DNA of 64,000 bases from a virus, in the IMG/VR virus record IMGVR_UViG_3300046170_000299, one strand, 5' to 3'. Made by a program: the position numbers and the translations under genes. Below are positions 18,589 through 49,403 of the stretch, piece after piece (within the stretch, counting starts at the first letter, position 1; each line of letters begins with the position of its first letter). The notes under the pieces are model-generated. The model ran no database searches. It was given only the letters and a program-made list of their open reading frames with translations, and was not told the DNA's origin.

Positions 18589-19127
18589 TATACTCGATAT
18601 TTAATTACAACTTCTTCGCTCAATTTCAAGCAGTTAATCATGAAAAATTAATAGCAGAATTGAATAGAGAAGTTGTACTTGGTGTTAATGATTATGCATG
18701 GTCTGCTAAGTGTGATGTATCTACAAAAAGATTAGATACAGGTAAGTACACTGAATTACTACAACCAAGCATCAATAAATTTGCAGATACTCTTCAAAGA
18801 AAATTAAATTTTGCAATTGATGAAGCATGGTTAAATAGTTATCAAAAAGGTTCTTATCAAGAGATTCATGATCATGTCCCTTCAGATATATCATGTGTAT
18901 TATTCTTGAATCATGGAAAAAACTTTTCGGAATTTTATTTTAGGGATAGGTACAGTTCAGATGTCTCATTTAGATTGAGACAAACATTAGGTTTTACAGA
19001 TCTATGGACTCCACAAATTAAAGCAGGAGATATATTATTTTTTCCTTCTAATGTTCTTCATGGAGTTTCTAAACATAAGAGTGATACGTTGAGAAAAACG
19101 TTTTCATGTGATATAATAATCAAATGA
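18585..19127 (+). CDS. 2OG-Fe(II) oxygenase-like protein
   Basis: EIHDH (HxH) and FFPSNVLHGV; GTG start overlaps upstream stop. Confidence 0.8.
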   Translation: MIYSIFNYNFFAQFQAVNHEKLIAELNREVVLGVNDYAWSAKCDVSTKRLDTGKYTELLQPSINKFADTLQRKLNFAIDEAWLNSYQKGSYQEIHDHVPSDISCVLFLNHGKNFSEFYFRDRYSSDVSFRLRQTLGFTDLWTPQIKAGDILFFPSNVLHGVSKHKSDTLRKTFSCDIIIK

Positions 19128-19198
19128 CTCAGTAGCTCAGTGGACAGAGCAACTGCCTTCTAAGCAGTCGGTCGTTGGTTCGACCCCAACCTGAGTCG
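19126..19198 (+). tRNA. trnR: tRNA-Arg(TCT)
   Basis: Acceptor GACTCAG/CTGAGTC, anticodon arm ACTGC-CTTCTAA-GCAGT, TTCGA loop. Confidence 0.95.
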
Positions 19199-19201
19199 TT
19201 A

Positions 19202-19284
19202 GTCGGTATGGCGGAATTGGTAGACGCGATAGATTTAGGTTCTATTGTCTTTATGGCGTGGAGGTTCAAGTCCTCTTACCGACA
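19202..19284 (+). tRNA. trnL: tRNA-Leu(TAG)
   Basis: Acceptor GTCGGTA/TACCGAC, ATAGA-TTTAGGT-TCTAT, long variable arm. Confidence 0.93.
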
Positions 19285-19287
19285 TTC

Positions 19288-19359
19288 GGGTGAATAGCTC
19301 AGCGGTAGAGCATCTCCTTTACACGGAGGCGGTCGGGGGTTCGATCCCCTCTTCACCCA
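19288..19359 (+). tRNA. trnV: tRNA-Val(TAC)
   Basis: Acceptor GGGTGAA/TTCACCC, anticodon loop TTTACAC, TTCGA loop. Confidence 0.95.
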
Positions 19360-22225: not shown

Positions 22226-22594
22226 ATGAGCGTTACATCACAACTAGAGAAAGCAGAAGAAGCTATCCGTCAGGCATTGATCAACGCTCTTGCAGAGGGC
22301 GAAGATGAATACCTTTCTGAACTGTTTGATTCACTTAATTCAGTTCGAGACCTGAGGACAAAGATCAACAACACCATTCGTTTCAGTGATAATACTGACG
22401 ACTTTTATGACCGATTGAATGATCCTAATTATTCTTTCAACTTGTCATCTCCTTATTTGAGCAGTCTGAAGATTGGAAAAGATTTGGATGCTTTGGATAA
22501 TCTTGACTTTGGTGCAGCAGCAGGTCCAGTCTATGGTTCTGCAAGCGAAGACGTAATTTCTTTTGAAGATTACAAGTCCCGAGATGACTCATAA
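22226..22594 (+). CDS. Hypothetical protein
   Basis: Likely start MSVTSQLEKAEEA. Confidence 0.7.
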   Translation: MSVTSQLEKAEEAIRQALINALAEGEDEYLSELFDSLNSVRDLRTKINNTIRFSDNTDDFYDRLNDPNYSFNLSSPYLSSLKIGKDLDALDNLDFGAAAGPVYGSASEDVISFEDYKSRDDS

Positions 22595-22740
22595 ACTCGC
22601 TCTGGTGCGGATGGGAAACTCTCCTGCCTGGTTTTTTATTTCCAGTTAAAGAATAAATGGTGGATCCAAATTGACCCCTTCCGTGTGGATGATTTCCTGT
22701 TTTGCATCTAAACTAAAACAGGTGGCGTGCATGGTAGACC
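22595..22740 (+). ncRNA. Structured RNA resembling the cyanophage manA/wcaG motifs
   Basis: Intergenic; three UGGYG motifs (22603, ~22659, ~22723), CTGG/CCAG stem whose loop could pair with AATAAA, CCTGTTTT/AAAACAGG hairpin. Confidence 0.6.
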
Positions 22741-43563: not shown

Positions 43564-43599
43564 GGTAAACAAATGTAACGATCCCGTTTGGATTCCGTG

Positions 43600-43715
43600 A
43601 CATTGATACGACGCCTTACCAAGACTAAACAGCGTCATTAAATAACAGTCTTTCATACCTCCGCCTGAGGGTGGCGAAGGAATATCATATCAGTGTTTCC
43701 CTGCACTCATACCTA
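43600..43715 (+). ncRNA. PhotoRC-II-like structured psbA leader
   Basis: GAC...AAGACT...AGTCTTTCATACCTCCGCC-TGAG-GGTGGCGAAGG in the psbA 5' UTR. Confidence 0.65.
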
Positions 43716-47988: not shown

Positions 47989-48240
47989 ATGAAAATTCTC
48001 CATGAAAATTGTGATCCAAAACTTGCGAGCGATACATCGCTTCCATACACCGCATACTTGATTGAATACATTGATCAAGGAGAAACTAAATGGGACATTG
48101 CTATATCTACAAAGCAATCAGATATGTTTGATTACTATTGGGATAAATATAAAGCAGTTACCAACATGACTCAATCACAAGGTCGAGTGAGTCCTAAACT
48201 CTGGCAAGATCCAAACGCTAAACCTGCAAAGAAAAAATAA
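47989..48240 (+). CDS. Hypothetical protein
   Basis: 83-aa ORF. Confidence 0.75.
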   Translation: MKILHENCDPKLASDTSLPYTAYLIEYIDQGETKWDIAISTKQSDMFDYYWDKYKAVTNMTQSQGRVSPKLWQDPNAKPAKKK

Positions 48241-48512
48241 TGAGTGCATCACAAACAGGAAACTGGGCAATCTTTTATAGACGAATTGATGATCCACTTG
48301 TGTGGCATACGATGAGACTATGGAGAAGTGATGGTGTGCTTGTGTCTGCTAAAACATATGATCAAGTTTATAAATTTAGACGCTTCAGAGAAGCGTGGGA
48401 GTTTGCAAAGAATTTAATTACAGGTGGAGAATTAGGTATACCTGTTTATGATGCTGAAGTACGCCGTGTTTGTAAAGCTAAAGGTGAAGCATTCTACCTA
48501 GCAGGAAACTAA
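48240..48512 (+). CDS. Hypothetical protein
   Basis: 90-aa coupled ORF. Confidence 0.75.
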   Translation: MSASQTGNWAIFYRRIDDPLVWHTMRLWRSDGVLVSAKTYDQVYKFRRFREAWEFAKNLITGGELGIPVYDAEVRRVCKAKGEAFYLAGN

Positions 48513-48513
48513 T

Positions 48514-48529
48514 TGTATTAAGAAATACA
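48514..48529. promoter_or_regulatory. NtcA box
   Basis: TGTA-ttaagaaa-TACA = GTA-N8-TAC with preferred flanks. Confidence 0.7.
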
Positions 48530-48531
48530 GG

Positions 48532-48560
48532 TTGACAACGCATACATAGTATGGTATGCT
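48532..48560 (+). promoter_or_regulatory. Sigma70-type promoter
   Basis: TTGACA, 17 bp, TG-n-TATGCT; predicted TSS ~48567 at the aptamer 5' end. Confidence 0.8.
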
Positions 48561-48566
48561 TATACC

Positions 48567-48613
48567 ATCGTTCATCCCACTCTTGGGTGGGACGCAAGTA
48601 AGTCGCGGAACGG
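48567..48613 (+). ncRNA. Glutamine-II (Downstream-peptide) riboswitch-like aptamer 1
   Basis: CGTTC/GAACG P1, TCCCAC/GTGGGA P2, CGCAA...CG...GGAACGG. Confidence 0.75.
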
Positions 48614-48616
48614 AGC

Positions 48617-48799
48617 CGTTCATCCCATGCTAGAATTATTATTCTATTCATCACTCACATGTGCTCAAGCTGATAGCATTATGCTACGGATGAGAACAAA
48701 CGAGAATATTCCTCCCGAATATAAGGTGGAATTGATTGAGGTCATGAAGGAATCAACACCTGAATGCTACCCTTGGGACGCAAACGACTAAAGGAACGG
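48617..48799 (+). ncRNA. Glutamine-II riboswitch-like aptamer 2, split by an ORF in the P2 loop
   Basis: 5' half CGTTCATCCCA (48617-48627); 3' half TGGGACGCAAACGACTAAAGGAACGG (48774-48799). Confidence 0.7.
48627..48791 (+). CDS. 54-aa ORF nested in aptamer 2
   Basis: MLELLFYSSLTCAQADSIMLRMRTNENIPPEYKVELIEVMKESTPECYPWDAND; GGAG at 48612-48615. Confidence 0.65.
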   Translation: MLELLFYSSLTCAQADSIMLRMRTNENIPPEYKVELIEVMKESTPECYPWDAND

Positions 48800-48829
48800 A
48801 TTAAAATCCAACTACTTTAGGAGTAACTC

Positions 48830-48997
48830 ATGAACACACTTAATCAAATCAAGAAGCAGATCATCAAGAGATCTGCTCTACACGACGCTCAGATTCTTCA
48901 CACTACATATCGTGGTGTTAAGTATGATACAGGTAGTGTAGAATCTAAAGAGACCCATGGCACATTCTGCTATCGTGGTCAACTTTATAAAAAGTGA
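48830..48997 (+). CDS. DUF4278-family small protein
   Basis: TTYRGVKY and FCYRGQLY repeats; AGGAG RBS; downstream of the aptamers. Confidence 0.8.
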   Translation: MNTLNQIKKQIIKRSALHDAQILHTTYRGVKYDTGSVESKETHGTFCYRGQLYKK

Positions 48998-49011
48998 TTA
49001 ACTTACTTATC

Positions 49012-49040
49012 CAGAGAGGGTTTTAACCCTCTCTTTTTTT
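49012..49040 (+). terminator. Intrinsic terminator
   Basis: AGAGAGGG-ttttaa-CCCTCTCT + T tract. Confidence 0.85.
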
Positions 49041-49185
49041 ATGAGTATAAACCAGTAGGCAATAATATTCGTTGCAATTTTTCTTTAATTGAATGTTCCA
49101 AAAATAAATAGTGGTAGAATTATGCGAGGTGGAAAAATGAACCCTTCTCTCCCCTTTATTATGGTTTATTGCATGGAGAAAATTA

Positions 49186-49359
49186 ATGCACAATCTATTG
49201 TCCAGATCTCAACTTAACCAGTGGAGACACTTAGAAACTACTGTAGACACTTTGGAGGTGGAAAATCAAAAGCTCGATGACTACTATGAATGTTTAGTCG
49301 AATGCGATTTAGAAAACCAAACTTATTGTAAACGAATATGTAGAAAAATTTTAACGTAA
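49186..49359 (+). CDS. Small twin-CX3C protein (57 aa)
   Basis: MHNLLSRSQLNQWRH...YYECLVECDLENQTYCKRICRKILT; hand-translated. Confidence 0.7.
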   Translation: MHNLLSRSQLNQWRHLETTVDTLEVENQKLDDYYECLVECDLENQTYCKRICRKILT

Positions 49360-49365
49360 ATATCT

Positions 49366-49403
49366 AGAGAGGGGTTGCAACCCCTCTTTTTTTATGCTAT
49401 GAT
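49366..49403 (+). promoter_or_regulatory. Terminator fused with sigma70 promoter
   Basis: AGAGGGG-ttgcaa-CCCCTCT + T tract; TTGCAA (49375), 17 bp, TATGAT (49398). Confidence 0.75.

Follow-up and report, generated by a model that had tools for sequence, protein, structure and literature searches.

Organization of the cassette

Between a phrog_6087 gene and the thyX region of the window (the whole 64,000-nt stretch of viral DNA analysed), a compact set of elements is found, consisting of an NtcA-like box, a sigma-70-type promoter, two CGTTCA...CGCAA...GGAACG units, a DUF4278-like open reading frame (ORF) and an intrinsic terminator (Table 1). All of these had been listed in the initial annotation and were read from the sequence at the positions given there. 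Its description of the locus as a self-contained cassette was also borne out, the promoter, the glutamine-riboswitch-type RNA, the DUF4278 gene and the terminator being kept across cyanomyovirus genera. A suggested correspondence of the RNA to the cyanomyovirus CfrI RNA was rejected: CfrI, at about 225 nt, runs antisense to psbA and to a homing endonuclease gene (PMC2984593), whereas the RNA described here is the sense leader of a small operon.

Table 1. Features of the cassette, with positions in the window.
Feature	Position	Strand	Remarks
NtcA-like box GTA-N8-TAC, with flanks TGTA-N8-TACA	48515..48528	+	3 nt 5' of the -35 hexamer
Sigma-70-type promoter	48532..48560	+	TTGACA (48532-48537), 17-nt spacer, TATGCT (48555-48560); 10/12 consensus matches; TG just before -10
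CGUUCA(1): outer P1 5' strand CGUUC and joining A	48569..48574	+	Invariant in all loci; aligns to P1 of RF01739
Hairpin 1 (outer-core P2)	48575..48592	+	Compact in the window phage; covariation
CGCAAGUA: ligand-pocket CGC and E-loop 5' half AGUA	48593..48600	+	Invariant; aligns to CGGAAGUA of RF01739
P3 5' strand AGUCG	48601..48605	+	Pairs with CGACU 48785-48789
GGAACG(1), linker GAGC, CGUUCA(2)	48607..48622	+	Proposed inner P1' hairpin, GAACG with CGUUC
Hairpin 2 (inner-core P2')	48623..48778	+	UCCCA 48623-48627 pairs with UGGGA 48774-48778 across 146 nt
Embedded gene, 54 aa	48627..48791	+	phrog_504 (E 9e-31); cyanophage T4-GC_430
CGCAAA: inner-core CGC strand and linker	48779..48784	+	CGCA(A/C)A in nearly all elements
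P3 3' strand CGACU	48785..48789	+	Pairs with AGUCG 48601-48605
Helix CUAAAG (48788-48793) with CUUUAG (48815-48820)	48788..48820	+	Encloses GAACG(2) and a small hairpin
AAAG-GAACG-G: E-loop 3' half, outer P1 3' strand GAACG (48794-48798), long-range-pair G	48790..48799	+	Counterpart in compact relatives aligns to GAAGGAACG of RF01739
DUF4278-like gene, 55 aa	48830..48997	+	phrog_545 (E 1e-30); T4-GC_937; motifs YRGVKY and YRGQLY
Intrinsic terminator	49013..49042	+	9-bp stem (49013-49034), 4-nt loop, T-run

The cassette appears as a single copy in more than 400 marine T4-like cyanophage records. A 44-nt junction occurs once per record in 422 cyanophage records, and a pattern of this junction gave six matches in 185,579 species genomes, of which five were cyanophage-like contigs within the assemblies and one was due to chance. 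No host chromosomal copy of the arrangement was found with the junction pattern in these 185,579 genomes. Metatranscriptome contigs of three studies span the cassette, one contig of 443 nt extending from 48618 to 49060; such contigs are blind to starts, strands and levels and may reflect DNA carry-over, and they were not counted toward expression or start site. No published description of the cassette was found in the literature, though its nested form may be included in Ames and Breaker (2011).

Promoter and NtcA-like box

Because CGTTCA(1) begins 9 nt after the -10 box, the predicted sigma-70 start falls 1-3 nt before the RNA element. Transcription from this promoter, behind the NtcA-like box, would give an RNA of about 470 nt that begins just before the putative double glutamine sensor. 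The promoters of relatives combine TTGACT or TTGACA with TATAAT (78 of 107), spaced by 17 nt in 84 of 107, and end 7-9 nt before CGTTCA.

The motif GTA-N8-TAC is present 26 times in the window, with 13.8 expected, and a single occurrence by itself means little. The exact box was found in 62 of 107 distinct upstream regions of relatives in a first set and in 109 of 179 (61%) distinct upstream 90-mers, at a fixed place 5' of the promoter. The background elsewhere in the same loci is 0.03 per 90 nt (3%), giving an upstream enrichment of about 20-fold. The gap between box and -35 hexamer takes one of two fixed offsets, 2-3 nt or 8-9 nt, and approximately 39% of relatives are without the box.

NtcA-activated (class II) promoters have GTA-N8-TAC near -41.5, about 22 nt 5' of a TAN3T -10 element, and no -35 element. 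In the window, a TAN3T hexamer (TATGGT, 48550-48555) lies 21 nt 3' of the box and is overlapped by the consensus promoter, and the box is centred at about -45 (about -50 in most relatives). Its position is unlike the textbook activator layout because a consensus -35 is present. The palindrome may instead be bound as an operator by a different dimeric protein, of the host or the phage, or belong to the promoter as an upstream element, a reading that deserves weight although we doubt it. The off-centre placement with the -35 not replaced, the relatives without a box and the mere six fixed bases of the motif all agree with such a reading, but GTA and TAC are conserved around eight drifting bases, the flanks often read TGTA-N8-TACA and the 20-fold enrichment is at fixed offsets. 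In addition, Sullivan et al. (2010; PMC3037559) reported NtcA sites in every one of the 16 cyanomyovirus genomes that they analysed, and the host counterpart, gifB, is under NtcA control (PMC7760959). We favour a candidate NtcA box through which host NtcA, together with 2-oxoglutarate, probably modulates transcription, whether upwards or downwards. The promoters of Sullivan et al. (PMC3037559) likewise have an intergenic GTA-N8-TAC 5' of a phage gene. The box described here differs in that it abuts a consensus -35 instead of replacing it and in that it is tied to a glutamine sensor, riboswitches being unmentioned in that paper.

The putative glutamine sensor RNA

Unit 1 of the sensor extends from 48569 to 48613, and unit 2 is composed of a 5' half (48617-48629) and a 3' half (48774-48799). 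The initial annotation considered the units to be two plain glutamine-II aptamers, to be checked with the Downstream-peptide/glutamine-II model. This model (RF01704) matched unit 1 at 25.0 bits (E 6.6e-4) and did not reach its gathering score of 33. The best Rfam match was to the glutamine-I model (RF01739) instead, at 29.1 bits (E 4e-4), again to unit 1 only and below the gathering score of 35; in a search of the whole 64,000-nt window at the gathering threshold, Rfam gave no glutamine match. Relatives with two short hairpins pass RF01739 with 40.3-43.6 bits, and their alignment runs from CGUUCA(1) through GGAACG(2) with the second core inside P3. A 99-nt RF01739 match of 44 bits has been published for S-CREM1 (PMC9964418). 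Entire genes lodged in one or both hairpins extend the sensor, and standard scans mostly miss it for this reason.

The outer core would form a glutamine-I three-way junction, made up of P1 (CGUUC 48569-48573 with GAACG 48794-48798), the P2 hairpin (48575-48592), an AGUA/AAA E-loop and P3. Both the CGUUC/GAACG pairing of P1 and a P2 hairpin closed by A-UCCC...GGGA are present. P1 offers no covariation because its strands are invariant. In hairpin 1, positions 1-5 are paired in 94.5% of cases with many pair types (47 distinct compact versions), versus 74% when partners are shuffled. The four scored pairs of P3 (AGUC with GACU) are formed in 213 of 213 elements by eight combinations, including AGUC/GACU, GGUC/GACU, AAUC/GAUU, AUUC/GAAU and AGAC/GUCU. 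Compensatory changes on both sides occur at P3 positions 2, 3 and 5, the fifth pair being G-C, U-A or A-U. P3 thus has the covariation of a glutamine-I helix, and it joins both units, enclosing the second core rather than a short loop. These findings did not uphold the description as two plain glutamine-II aptamers.

The E-loop places AAGUA (48596-48600) opposite AAAG (48790-48793) in the window, and opposite GAAG in most relatives. The bases of the long-range C-G pair (CGC, GAACGG) are present in both units, as tested by base presence alone, and the role of the CGC strand is assigned from the glutamine-II structure (PMC6698751). Since these linchpin bases (CGC...GAACGG) are of the glutamine-II kind, the RNA appears to be a hybrid of the two classes.

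Nested and side-by-side registers

The two cores are best read as interlocked rather than side by side. In the nested register, P3 would enclose a second, circularly permuted core, in which GAACG(1) pairs with CGUUC(2) over a 4-nt loop, followed by hairpin 2 and then by the second CGC strand. In 108 of 108 complete elements this register is favoured by 2.4-7 kcal/mol, and an unconstrained minimum-energy prediction for the loop-trimmed window RNA arrives at it. The linker between the units is 3-4 nt in the same 108 of 108. The E-loop flanks P3 in the nested register only, and its consensus AAGUA...GAAGGAACG arises solely when unit 1 is joined to unit 2. The inner P1' shows no covariation because both of its strands are invariant. 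The long-range pair of the inner core may be unable to form over a loop of only 3-4 nt. P3 itself fits both registers: it could be a junction helix in the one and, in the other, a P2 of the glutamine-II-like kind accompanied by pseudoknots.

Alternatively, the leader may hold two independent aptamers, with CGUUC(1) paired to GAACG(1) and CGUUC(2) to GAACG(2), each a glutamine-II-like pseudoknot. The role of P2 would then fall to P3 in unit 1 and to CUAAAG/CUUUAG in unit 2, and together the aptamers would respond more steeply to dose, an effect that has been proposed for other glutamine riboswitches in tandem. Covariation does not separate the two registers because CGUUC and GAACG are invariant. 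The side-by-side arrangement is the register in which unit 1 alone obtains its 29.1 bits (RF01739) and 25 bits (RF01704), but when compact relatives are matched to RF01739 over their full length, the alignment is in the nested register, with a score 11-15 bits higher. Our own covariance model, built on 16 compact double cores, also matched unit 1 of the window side by side (28.6 bits), although it failed to bridge the 158-nt insert and has no bearing either way on the split unit. In favour of independent aptamers are the glutamine-II-type linchpin (PMC6698751), the frequency of tandem glutamine riboswitches (157 doublets reported; PMC9481103) and the earlier transcription of unit 1, which could fold before unit 2 exists. 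The units are 66 to more than 100 nt apart in three relatives, against the 3-4 nt linker of every complete element. Side-by-side folding is also the less stable in all 108, needs two interleaved pseudoknots whose P2 helices share 2 nt, and would leave the E-loop consensus on both sides of P3 to coincidence. We regard two independent aptamers as unlikely and retain the nested register.

The gene embedded in hairpin 2

The second unit of the initial annotation is present, but it is split by a 54-codon ORF that was not mentioned there. This ORF starts with an AUG inside the 5' strand of hairpin 2 and ends with a UAA (48789-48791) that overlaps the last base of P3 and the E-loop. The ORF is annotated in relatives, and its length changes in multiples of three. 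Variability at the three codon positions is 0.295, 0.128 and 0.397, a pattern by which the ORF is a real gene. In the last five codons the third positions vary by just 0.01-0.02, and this near-invariance therefore points to an RNA rather than a protein constraint. The encoded protein was predicted by AF2 to be a helical hairpin (pLDDT 81) with conserved C12 and C47. It belongs to no Pfam family, a Foldseek search of the PDB gave no structural match (best E 4.2), and in the ESM Atlas it fell only into unnamed clusters.

Hairpins 1 and 2 covary even across embedded genes, the 5' strand being outside the ORF. Among 50 distinct ORF-bearing versions of hairpin 2, positions 1-5 are paired in 96.4%, versus 89% after shuffling and at most 92.8% in 1000 shuffles; position 4 is C-G in 36, U-A in 10 and U-G in 3. 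Hairpin 2 is compact (12-27 nt) in six relatives, and the loop of hairpin 1 houses a gene of about 66 codons in 31 relatives. The loop genes of the two hairpins are homologous (hhalign probability 91.5%, E 9e-7). The hairpin loops act as insertion ports: some relatives carry the paralogue in hairpin 1, and others have both loops free of genes.

The embedding also allows a reading in which unit 1 alone works as a sensor and the second motif set is a relic, persisting as the coding sequence for the C-terminus of the embedded protein (WDAND) and as the DUF4278 leader. Unit 2 does reach into the ORF with its 3' half (48774-48791), and the inner core has CGA instead of CGC in a few relatives. A relic is nonetheless very improbable: third positions vary by 0.23-0.70 outside the last five codons, the non-coding strand 5' of the AUG covaries with codons at the end of the ORF, P3 covaries, and the six relatives with compact hairpins possess unit 2 without any ORF. 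A functional second unit remains the preferred reading.

The DUF4278-like gene and the proposed switch

The 55-aa protein of the window scored 23.7 bits (E 6.5e-5) with PF14105 (DUF4278), just below the gathering score of 25.3, and 26 of 30 diverse relatives matched this family at E <= 0.01 (best 1.9e-6). Homologues numbered 527, and the YRG motifs are nearly invariant. A search of PDB sequences with the DUF4278 profile found nothing, and hence no solved relative. The parallel to host gifB that had been drawn initially is documented: gifB is repressed by NtcA, and a glutamine riboswitch turns IF17 on (PMC7760959, PMC6212724). The IF17-like proteins of Prochlorococcus are short and without the C-terminal, IF7-like part by which IF17 contacts glutamine synthetase (PMC6212724); the 55-aa phage peptide may or may not act on that enzyme.

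The CUUUAG strand of the last helix overlaps the Shine-Dalgarno site of the DUF4278 gene (AGGAG, 48819-48823). The helix was fully paired in 104 of 106 elements of one set and in most of the 180 elements of another; its position 3 is G-C, A-U or G-U, and A is never opposite C. It shares 2 nt with P3 and 3 nt with the E-loop, and the two folds are therefore mutually exclusive. Without glutamine, CUAAAG would pair with CUUUAG and cover part of the Shine-Dalgarno site. Glutamine would stabilize P1, the E-loop and P3, which are built from the same bases, so that the ribosome site would be freed and the IF17-like protein turned on, much as the gifB leader works in the host. In hosts, riboswitches of both types activate the expression of DUF4278 and IF17 (PMC6212724, PMC6698751). 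From the overlap of the two folds and from this parallel, we infer that glutamine turns DUF4278 translation on. As a whole, the cassette is with fair probability explained by a promoter with an NtcA-like box, a nested double sensor around a 54-codon gene and glutamine-ON translation of DUF4278.

The helix that encloses GAACG(2) covaries and overlaps both P3 and the Shine-Dalgarno site, and it may be the OFF structure; it could also be a glutamine-II-type P2 of unit 2, which would make it the bound state instead. Ribosomes ending on the embedded gene would also open this helix and could bypass the switch.

Because translation of the embedded gene starts within hairpin 2 and stops at a codon overlapping P3 and the E-loop, ribosomes on this gene and the folded sensor should be mutually exclusive. 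It is conceivable, though on balance we think it rather unlikely, that the sensor assembles only on ribosome-free RNA, and that the nested, permuted double aptamer is a toggle gated by ligand and translation. If so, low glutamine would yield the loop-encoded Cys-hairpin protein and high glutamine the IF17-like protein.

Comparison with known systems

Riboswitches are considered rare in phages, and a survey listed just two glutamine aptamers in cyanophage genomes (PMC5473149), whereas the same sensor core is found once in each of 422 cyanophage records. By a testable route, cyanophages could read host 2-oxoglutarate through NtcA and glutamine through the RNA, and so time an IF17-like protein. 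Should glutamine synthetase be the target of this protein, nitrogen assimilation in some of the world's most abundant phototrophs would have an auxiliary, phage-encoded regulator.

The closest known RNA classes each share part of the element. With glutamine-I (the glnA RNA motif, RF01739, including the gifB/IF17 leader of Synechocystis; PMC6212724) it has in common P1, the P2 hairpin, the AAGUA...GAAGG E-loop and P3, as well as a place 5' of a DUF4278 gene, a ribosome-site helix expected to open with glutamine and a host gene that is also NtcA-controlled, and compact phage relatives pass the RF01739 gathering score. It differs from glutamine-I in being phage-encoded, in a P3 that encloses a second permuted core instead of a simple hairpin, in hairpin loops that hold whole genes, in a linchpin of glutamine-II orientation and in a window score (29.1 bits) under the cut-off of 35. 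With glutamine-II (Downstream-peptide, RF01704; yfr6 and DUF4278 peptides of marine picocyanobacteria; PMC2864571, PMC6698751) it shares the CGUUCA-hairpin-CGCA...GGAACGG core, the bases of the C-G long-range pair, a helix around GGAACG(2) and a short downstream ORF of the YRG type; marine picocyanobacteria are also the host group of the cassette phage. In contrast, the E-loop and P3 are without counterpart in glutamine-II, the helix around GGAACG(2) here overlaps P3 and the Shine-Dalgarno site, and the score is 25 bits against a cut-off of 33.

Tandem glutamine riboswitches (157 doublets and 4 triplets; PMC9481103) similarly have two glutamine-sensing cores per leader. In those tandems, distinct riboswitches are described as following one another, each equipped with an expression platform, whereas the cores described here lie 3-4 nt apart, are connected through a covarying helix and share one expression platform. 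The element would be a natural nested or permuted double aptamer, its core-joining helix backed by covariation, and a natural case of genes lodged in an RNA fold of the ligand-binding type. In group I and group II introns, a protein-coding ORF is likewise found in a terminal loop of a structured RNA, with a helix closing around it. Unlike those introns, the cassette has no splicing, endonuclease or maturase, its RNA is a putative ligand sensor, and the start and stop codons of its embedded ORF sit in functional helices.

Genomic context of the cassette

The window is part of the genome of a T4-like cyanomyovirus in the family Kyanoviridae that infects marine Synechococcus, and matches to the region comprised 419 cyanophage records and nothing else. 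The cassette is flanked by a phrog_6087 gene (48240-48512) on one side and by small genes preceding thyX on the other, a gene order that is the same in relatives. All elements listed in the initial annotation were found where it had placed them by sequence, promoter/terminator and Pfam checks. The next unit after the cassette contains a small gene (49186-49389 region) coding for a 57-aa phrog_665 protein with several cysteines, and has its own strong terminator (49366-49389). Besides three tRNA genes, the window has two further RNA elements, a wcaG RNA (68.6 bits) and a PhotoRC-II RNA (54.8 bits).

Features of the cassette and further RNA elements; (1) and (2) denote the two motif units
Feature	Position	Basis
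NtcA-like box, GTA-N8-TAC	48515-28	sequence
Promoter: TTGACA, 17-nt spacer, TATGCT, TG upstream	48532-37, 48555-60	sequence
CGTTCA(1)	48569	sequence
CGTTCA(2)	48617	sequence
ACGCAA, two copies	48592 and 48778	sequence
GGAACG, two copies	48607 and 48793	sequence
P3 strands	48601-05 with 48785-89	pairing across relatives
Shine-Dalgarno-adjacent helix	48788-93 with 48815-20	
Shine-Dalgarno site AGGAG of DUF4278 gene	48819-23	
DUF4278 ORF, 55 aa, two YRG motifs	48830-48997	
Terminator	49013-49042	
wcaG RNA, PhotoRC-II RNA, tRNA genes (listed together)	22573-22671, 43598-43693, 19126-19359	Rfam scan

A putative glutamine-sensor RNA split by genes

At the Rfam gathering threshold, no glutamine-family match was found in the window. 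With permissive filters, the first CGTTCA...CGCAA...GGAACG unit (48566-48620) scored 29.1 bits against the Glutamine model RF01739 (cut-off 35). The glutamine-II model (RF01704), the class first proposed for both units, also matched unit 1, but its 25 bits did not reach the cut-off of 33. Both units are present as described earlier, but unit 2 is not contiguous: its 5' half, CGUUCAUCCCAUG (48617-29), and 3' half, UGGGACGCAAACGACUAAAGGAACGG (48774-99), are 146 nt apart, and the gap is filled by an ORF (48627-48791).

A set of 108 distinct complete elements was compiled from twelve isolate genomes and from 118 viral contigs that share an invariant core 24-mer. Hairpins 1 and 2 are the P2 hairpins of the proposed outer and inner sensor cores. 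In the window's form (72/108) hairpin 1 is compact and hairpin 2 carries a gene; both carry genes in 30, both are compact in five, and one element has a gene in hairpin 1 only. The compact-compact relatives exceed the RF01739 threshold (40.3-43.6 bits) in a single alignment from CGUUCA(1) to GGAACG(2), in which hairpin 1 is P2, ACGCAAGUA and GAAGGAACG are the E-loop strands, AGU/ACU is P3, and P3 encloses the entire unit 2. The RNA also has the bases for a glutamine-II-type long-range pair (CGC with GAACGG; PMC6698751), and is thus a hybrid of the glutamine-I and glutamine-II classes.

P3 was examined by four pattern scans, each barring the common base at one AGUC position. Both strands were fully paired in 213 of 213 elements, as AGUC/GACU, GGUC/GACU, AAUC/GAUU, GAUC/GAUU, GGUC/GAUU, AUUC/GAAU, AGAC/GUCU or AGUC/GAUU, with a fifth pair of G-C, U-A or A-U. 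The linker following hairpin 1 therefore pairs with that following hairpin 2. The simplest fold would be an outer glutamine-I-type three-way junction, with CGUUC(1)-GAACG(2) as P1, and a circularly permuted core nested inside P3, running GGAACG(1), 3-4 nt loop, CGUUCA(2), hairpin 2 and CGCA. For this nested register count the E-loop consensus, which arises only across both units, and the GGAACG(1)-CGUUCA(2) linker, which is 3-4 nt in 108/108 elements. The register is favoured by 2.4-7 kcal/mol in all 108, and unconstrained folding of the window RNA with its loops trimmed gives the same register as the energy minimum. Pairing within each unit, side by side, is a possible alternative, since CGUUC and GAACG are invariant; P3 may then be a glutamine-II-like P2 accompanied by two pseudoknots, and a custom covariance model places the window's unit 1 in this register. 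Some relatives (L077, L119, L135) have CGA instead of CGC in the inner core, and with it no C for the long-range pair; decay of the inner core may be under way in these lineages.

In 50 distinct versions carrying an ORF, positions 1-5 of the helix closing hairpin 2 were 96.4% paired, against 89% after partner shuffling (maximum 92.8% in 1000 shuffles), and position 4 occurred as C-G (36), U-A (10) and U-G (3). Because the 5' strand precedes the AUG, coding sequence cannot account for its covariation with the end-of-ORF codons. In S-RSM4 the pairing is UCCU-AGGA and the tryptophan codon has become a lysine codon. In gene-bearing hairpin 1, AUG and UAA both fall within the helix (UCUUAUG paired with CAUAAGA in S-CAM1). 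In L076, L112 and L129 the GGAACG(1)-CGUUCA(2) linker has given way to 66 to >100 nt with a longer gene or a tiny ORF (MIYCTYYSSL or similar); this suggests a third port for insertions, in the loop that the proposed inner P1' would close.

The embedded genes

Judged by their sequences, the hairpin-loop inserts are genes. Their length differences are multiples of three, and variability by codon position is 0.295, 0.128 and 0.397. The 54-aa window product matches phrog_504 (E 9e-31) and the hairpin-1 product phrog_6471. The two families proved homologous by hhalign (probability 91.5%, E 8.8e-7); each has a hydrophobic stretch at the N-terminus and two conserved cysteines. AlphaFold predicts the 54-aa protein as a helical hairpin (pLDDT 81); structure and family searches with it matched nothing informative. 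In the last five codons (WDAND, UGGGACGCAAACGAC) third-position variability is only 0.01-0.02, a pattern by which their sequence appears set by the RNA and not by the protein.

Many database entries for the 54-aa protein are 80-82 aa long, which suggests that gene callers may have placed the start upstream, within the sensor RNA. Some records carry an overlapping CDS in the sensor region (S-BM3, CDS 1029-1250 in locus L006), and the start codon of the loop gene is TTG in L077 and L119.

Proposed expression platform and the DUF4278 gene

Downstream, CU(G/A)AAG, whose strand ends on the first G of GGAACG(2), pairs with (C/U)UU(C/U)AG, directly followed by GAG 9-11 nt upstream of the DUF4278 AUG. 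This Shine-Dalgarno-adjacent helix is fully paired in 104/106 versions, and A opposite C was never seen. It has two bases in common with P3 and three with the E-loop, so that the two covarying structures are mutually exclusive. In the gifB leader, glutamine turns IF17 on, by the proposed melting of an inhibitory duplex (PMC6212724), and the glutamine-II riboswitch behaves as an ON switch (PMC6698751). By analogy with both, we infer that the sensor would be a translational ON switch for the DUF4278 gene. The same helix may instead be P2 of a glutamine-II-like bound state.

The embedded AUG (48627) lies within hairpin 2, five bases past CGUUCA(2); the sole Shine-Dalgarno-like GGAG (48612-15) falls where inner P1' and its loop are proposed, and the stop codon (48789-91) overlaps the E-loop and the final P3 base. 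A ribosome that initiates or elongates on this gene would thus be incompatible with the folded sensor, and a terminating one would open the Shine-Dalgarno helix too. Owing to the nested gene, the two proteins may be expressed reciprocally or in a coupled manner.

The window's DUF4278 protein scored 23.7 bits in Pfam, below the cut-off of 25.3; PF14105 was matched by 26 of 30 diverse relatives, and both YRG motifs are nearly invariant in the protein alignment. Two forms occur, one of 55 aa with an N-terminal MNTL...ALHDAQ helix and one of 47 aa (MTTITYRGVKY...KFASKS). The suggested effect on glutamine synthetase is hypothetical only, because short Prochlorococcus IF17-like proteins are missing the part of IF17 that contacts the enzyme (PMC6212724).

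Distribution

The 44-nt junction (48586-48629) occurs once per record in 422 phage records, all cyanophages; in the species-genome collection only phage-like contigs have it. In the literature, scans have recorded two cyanophage glutamine aptamers (PMC5473149) and a single RF01739 match, in S-CREM1 (PMC9964418); the riboswitch also features in reviews of cyanophage RNAs (PMC9602691). The searchable literature yielded no description of genes inside aptamer loops, joined cores or a phage IF17-like gene, and the sensor RNA was unannotated in all 12 inspected records of relatives. The possible identity with CfrI was rejected; CfrI is a different RNA (PMC2984593).

Promoter and NtcA-like box

From the position of CGTTCA(1), the predicted sigma-70 start lies 1-3 nt upstream of the RNA element. 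Relatives keep the promoter as TTGAC(T/A), 17-nt spacer and TATAAT, ending 7-9 nt before CGTTCA. An exact GTA-N8-TAC is present in 62/107 distinct upstream regions (109/179 in an enlarged set), against 0.03 per 90 nt in the rest of the same loci. The inner eight bases drift, while GTA and TAC are retained, often together with a flanking T and A. Between the box and the -35 element lie 2-3 nt, as in the window's group, or 8-9 nt, which puts the box centre near -45 or -50, neither at -41.5 nor replacing the -35 element. TATGGT lies 21 nt downstream of the window's box, and an overlapping NtcA-type promoter is conceivable. Sullivan et al. [quoted passage not shown] Candidate repression by NtcA would make a coherent regulatory scheme, confining expression to times of plentiful nitrogen. 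The whole window has 26 GTA-N8-TAC sites, mostly inside coding sequence by a crude ORF map, against 13.8 expected from shuffles (sd 3.8; 0/100 reach 26).

A palindrome covers the -10 box (within 48542-48568; ATGGTAT 48551-57 with ATACCAT 48562-68). Arms of at least 6 bp occur in 74/107 relatives and in 8/107 after shuffling, and their sequences vary (GGTCTA/TAGACC, ATGGTA/TACCAT, GGTGTTA/TAACACC). The promoter spacer holds a T4-late-type NTAAATA in 54/107 relatives, ending 25-27 nt before CGTTCA (ATACATA in the window). A late transcript from this motif would carry the palindrome as a 5'-terminal hairpin, and early and late promoters may thus be superimposed.
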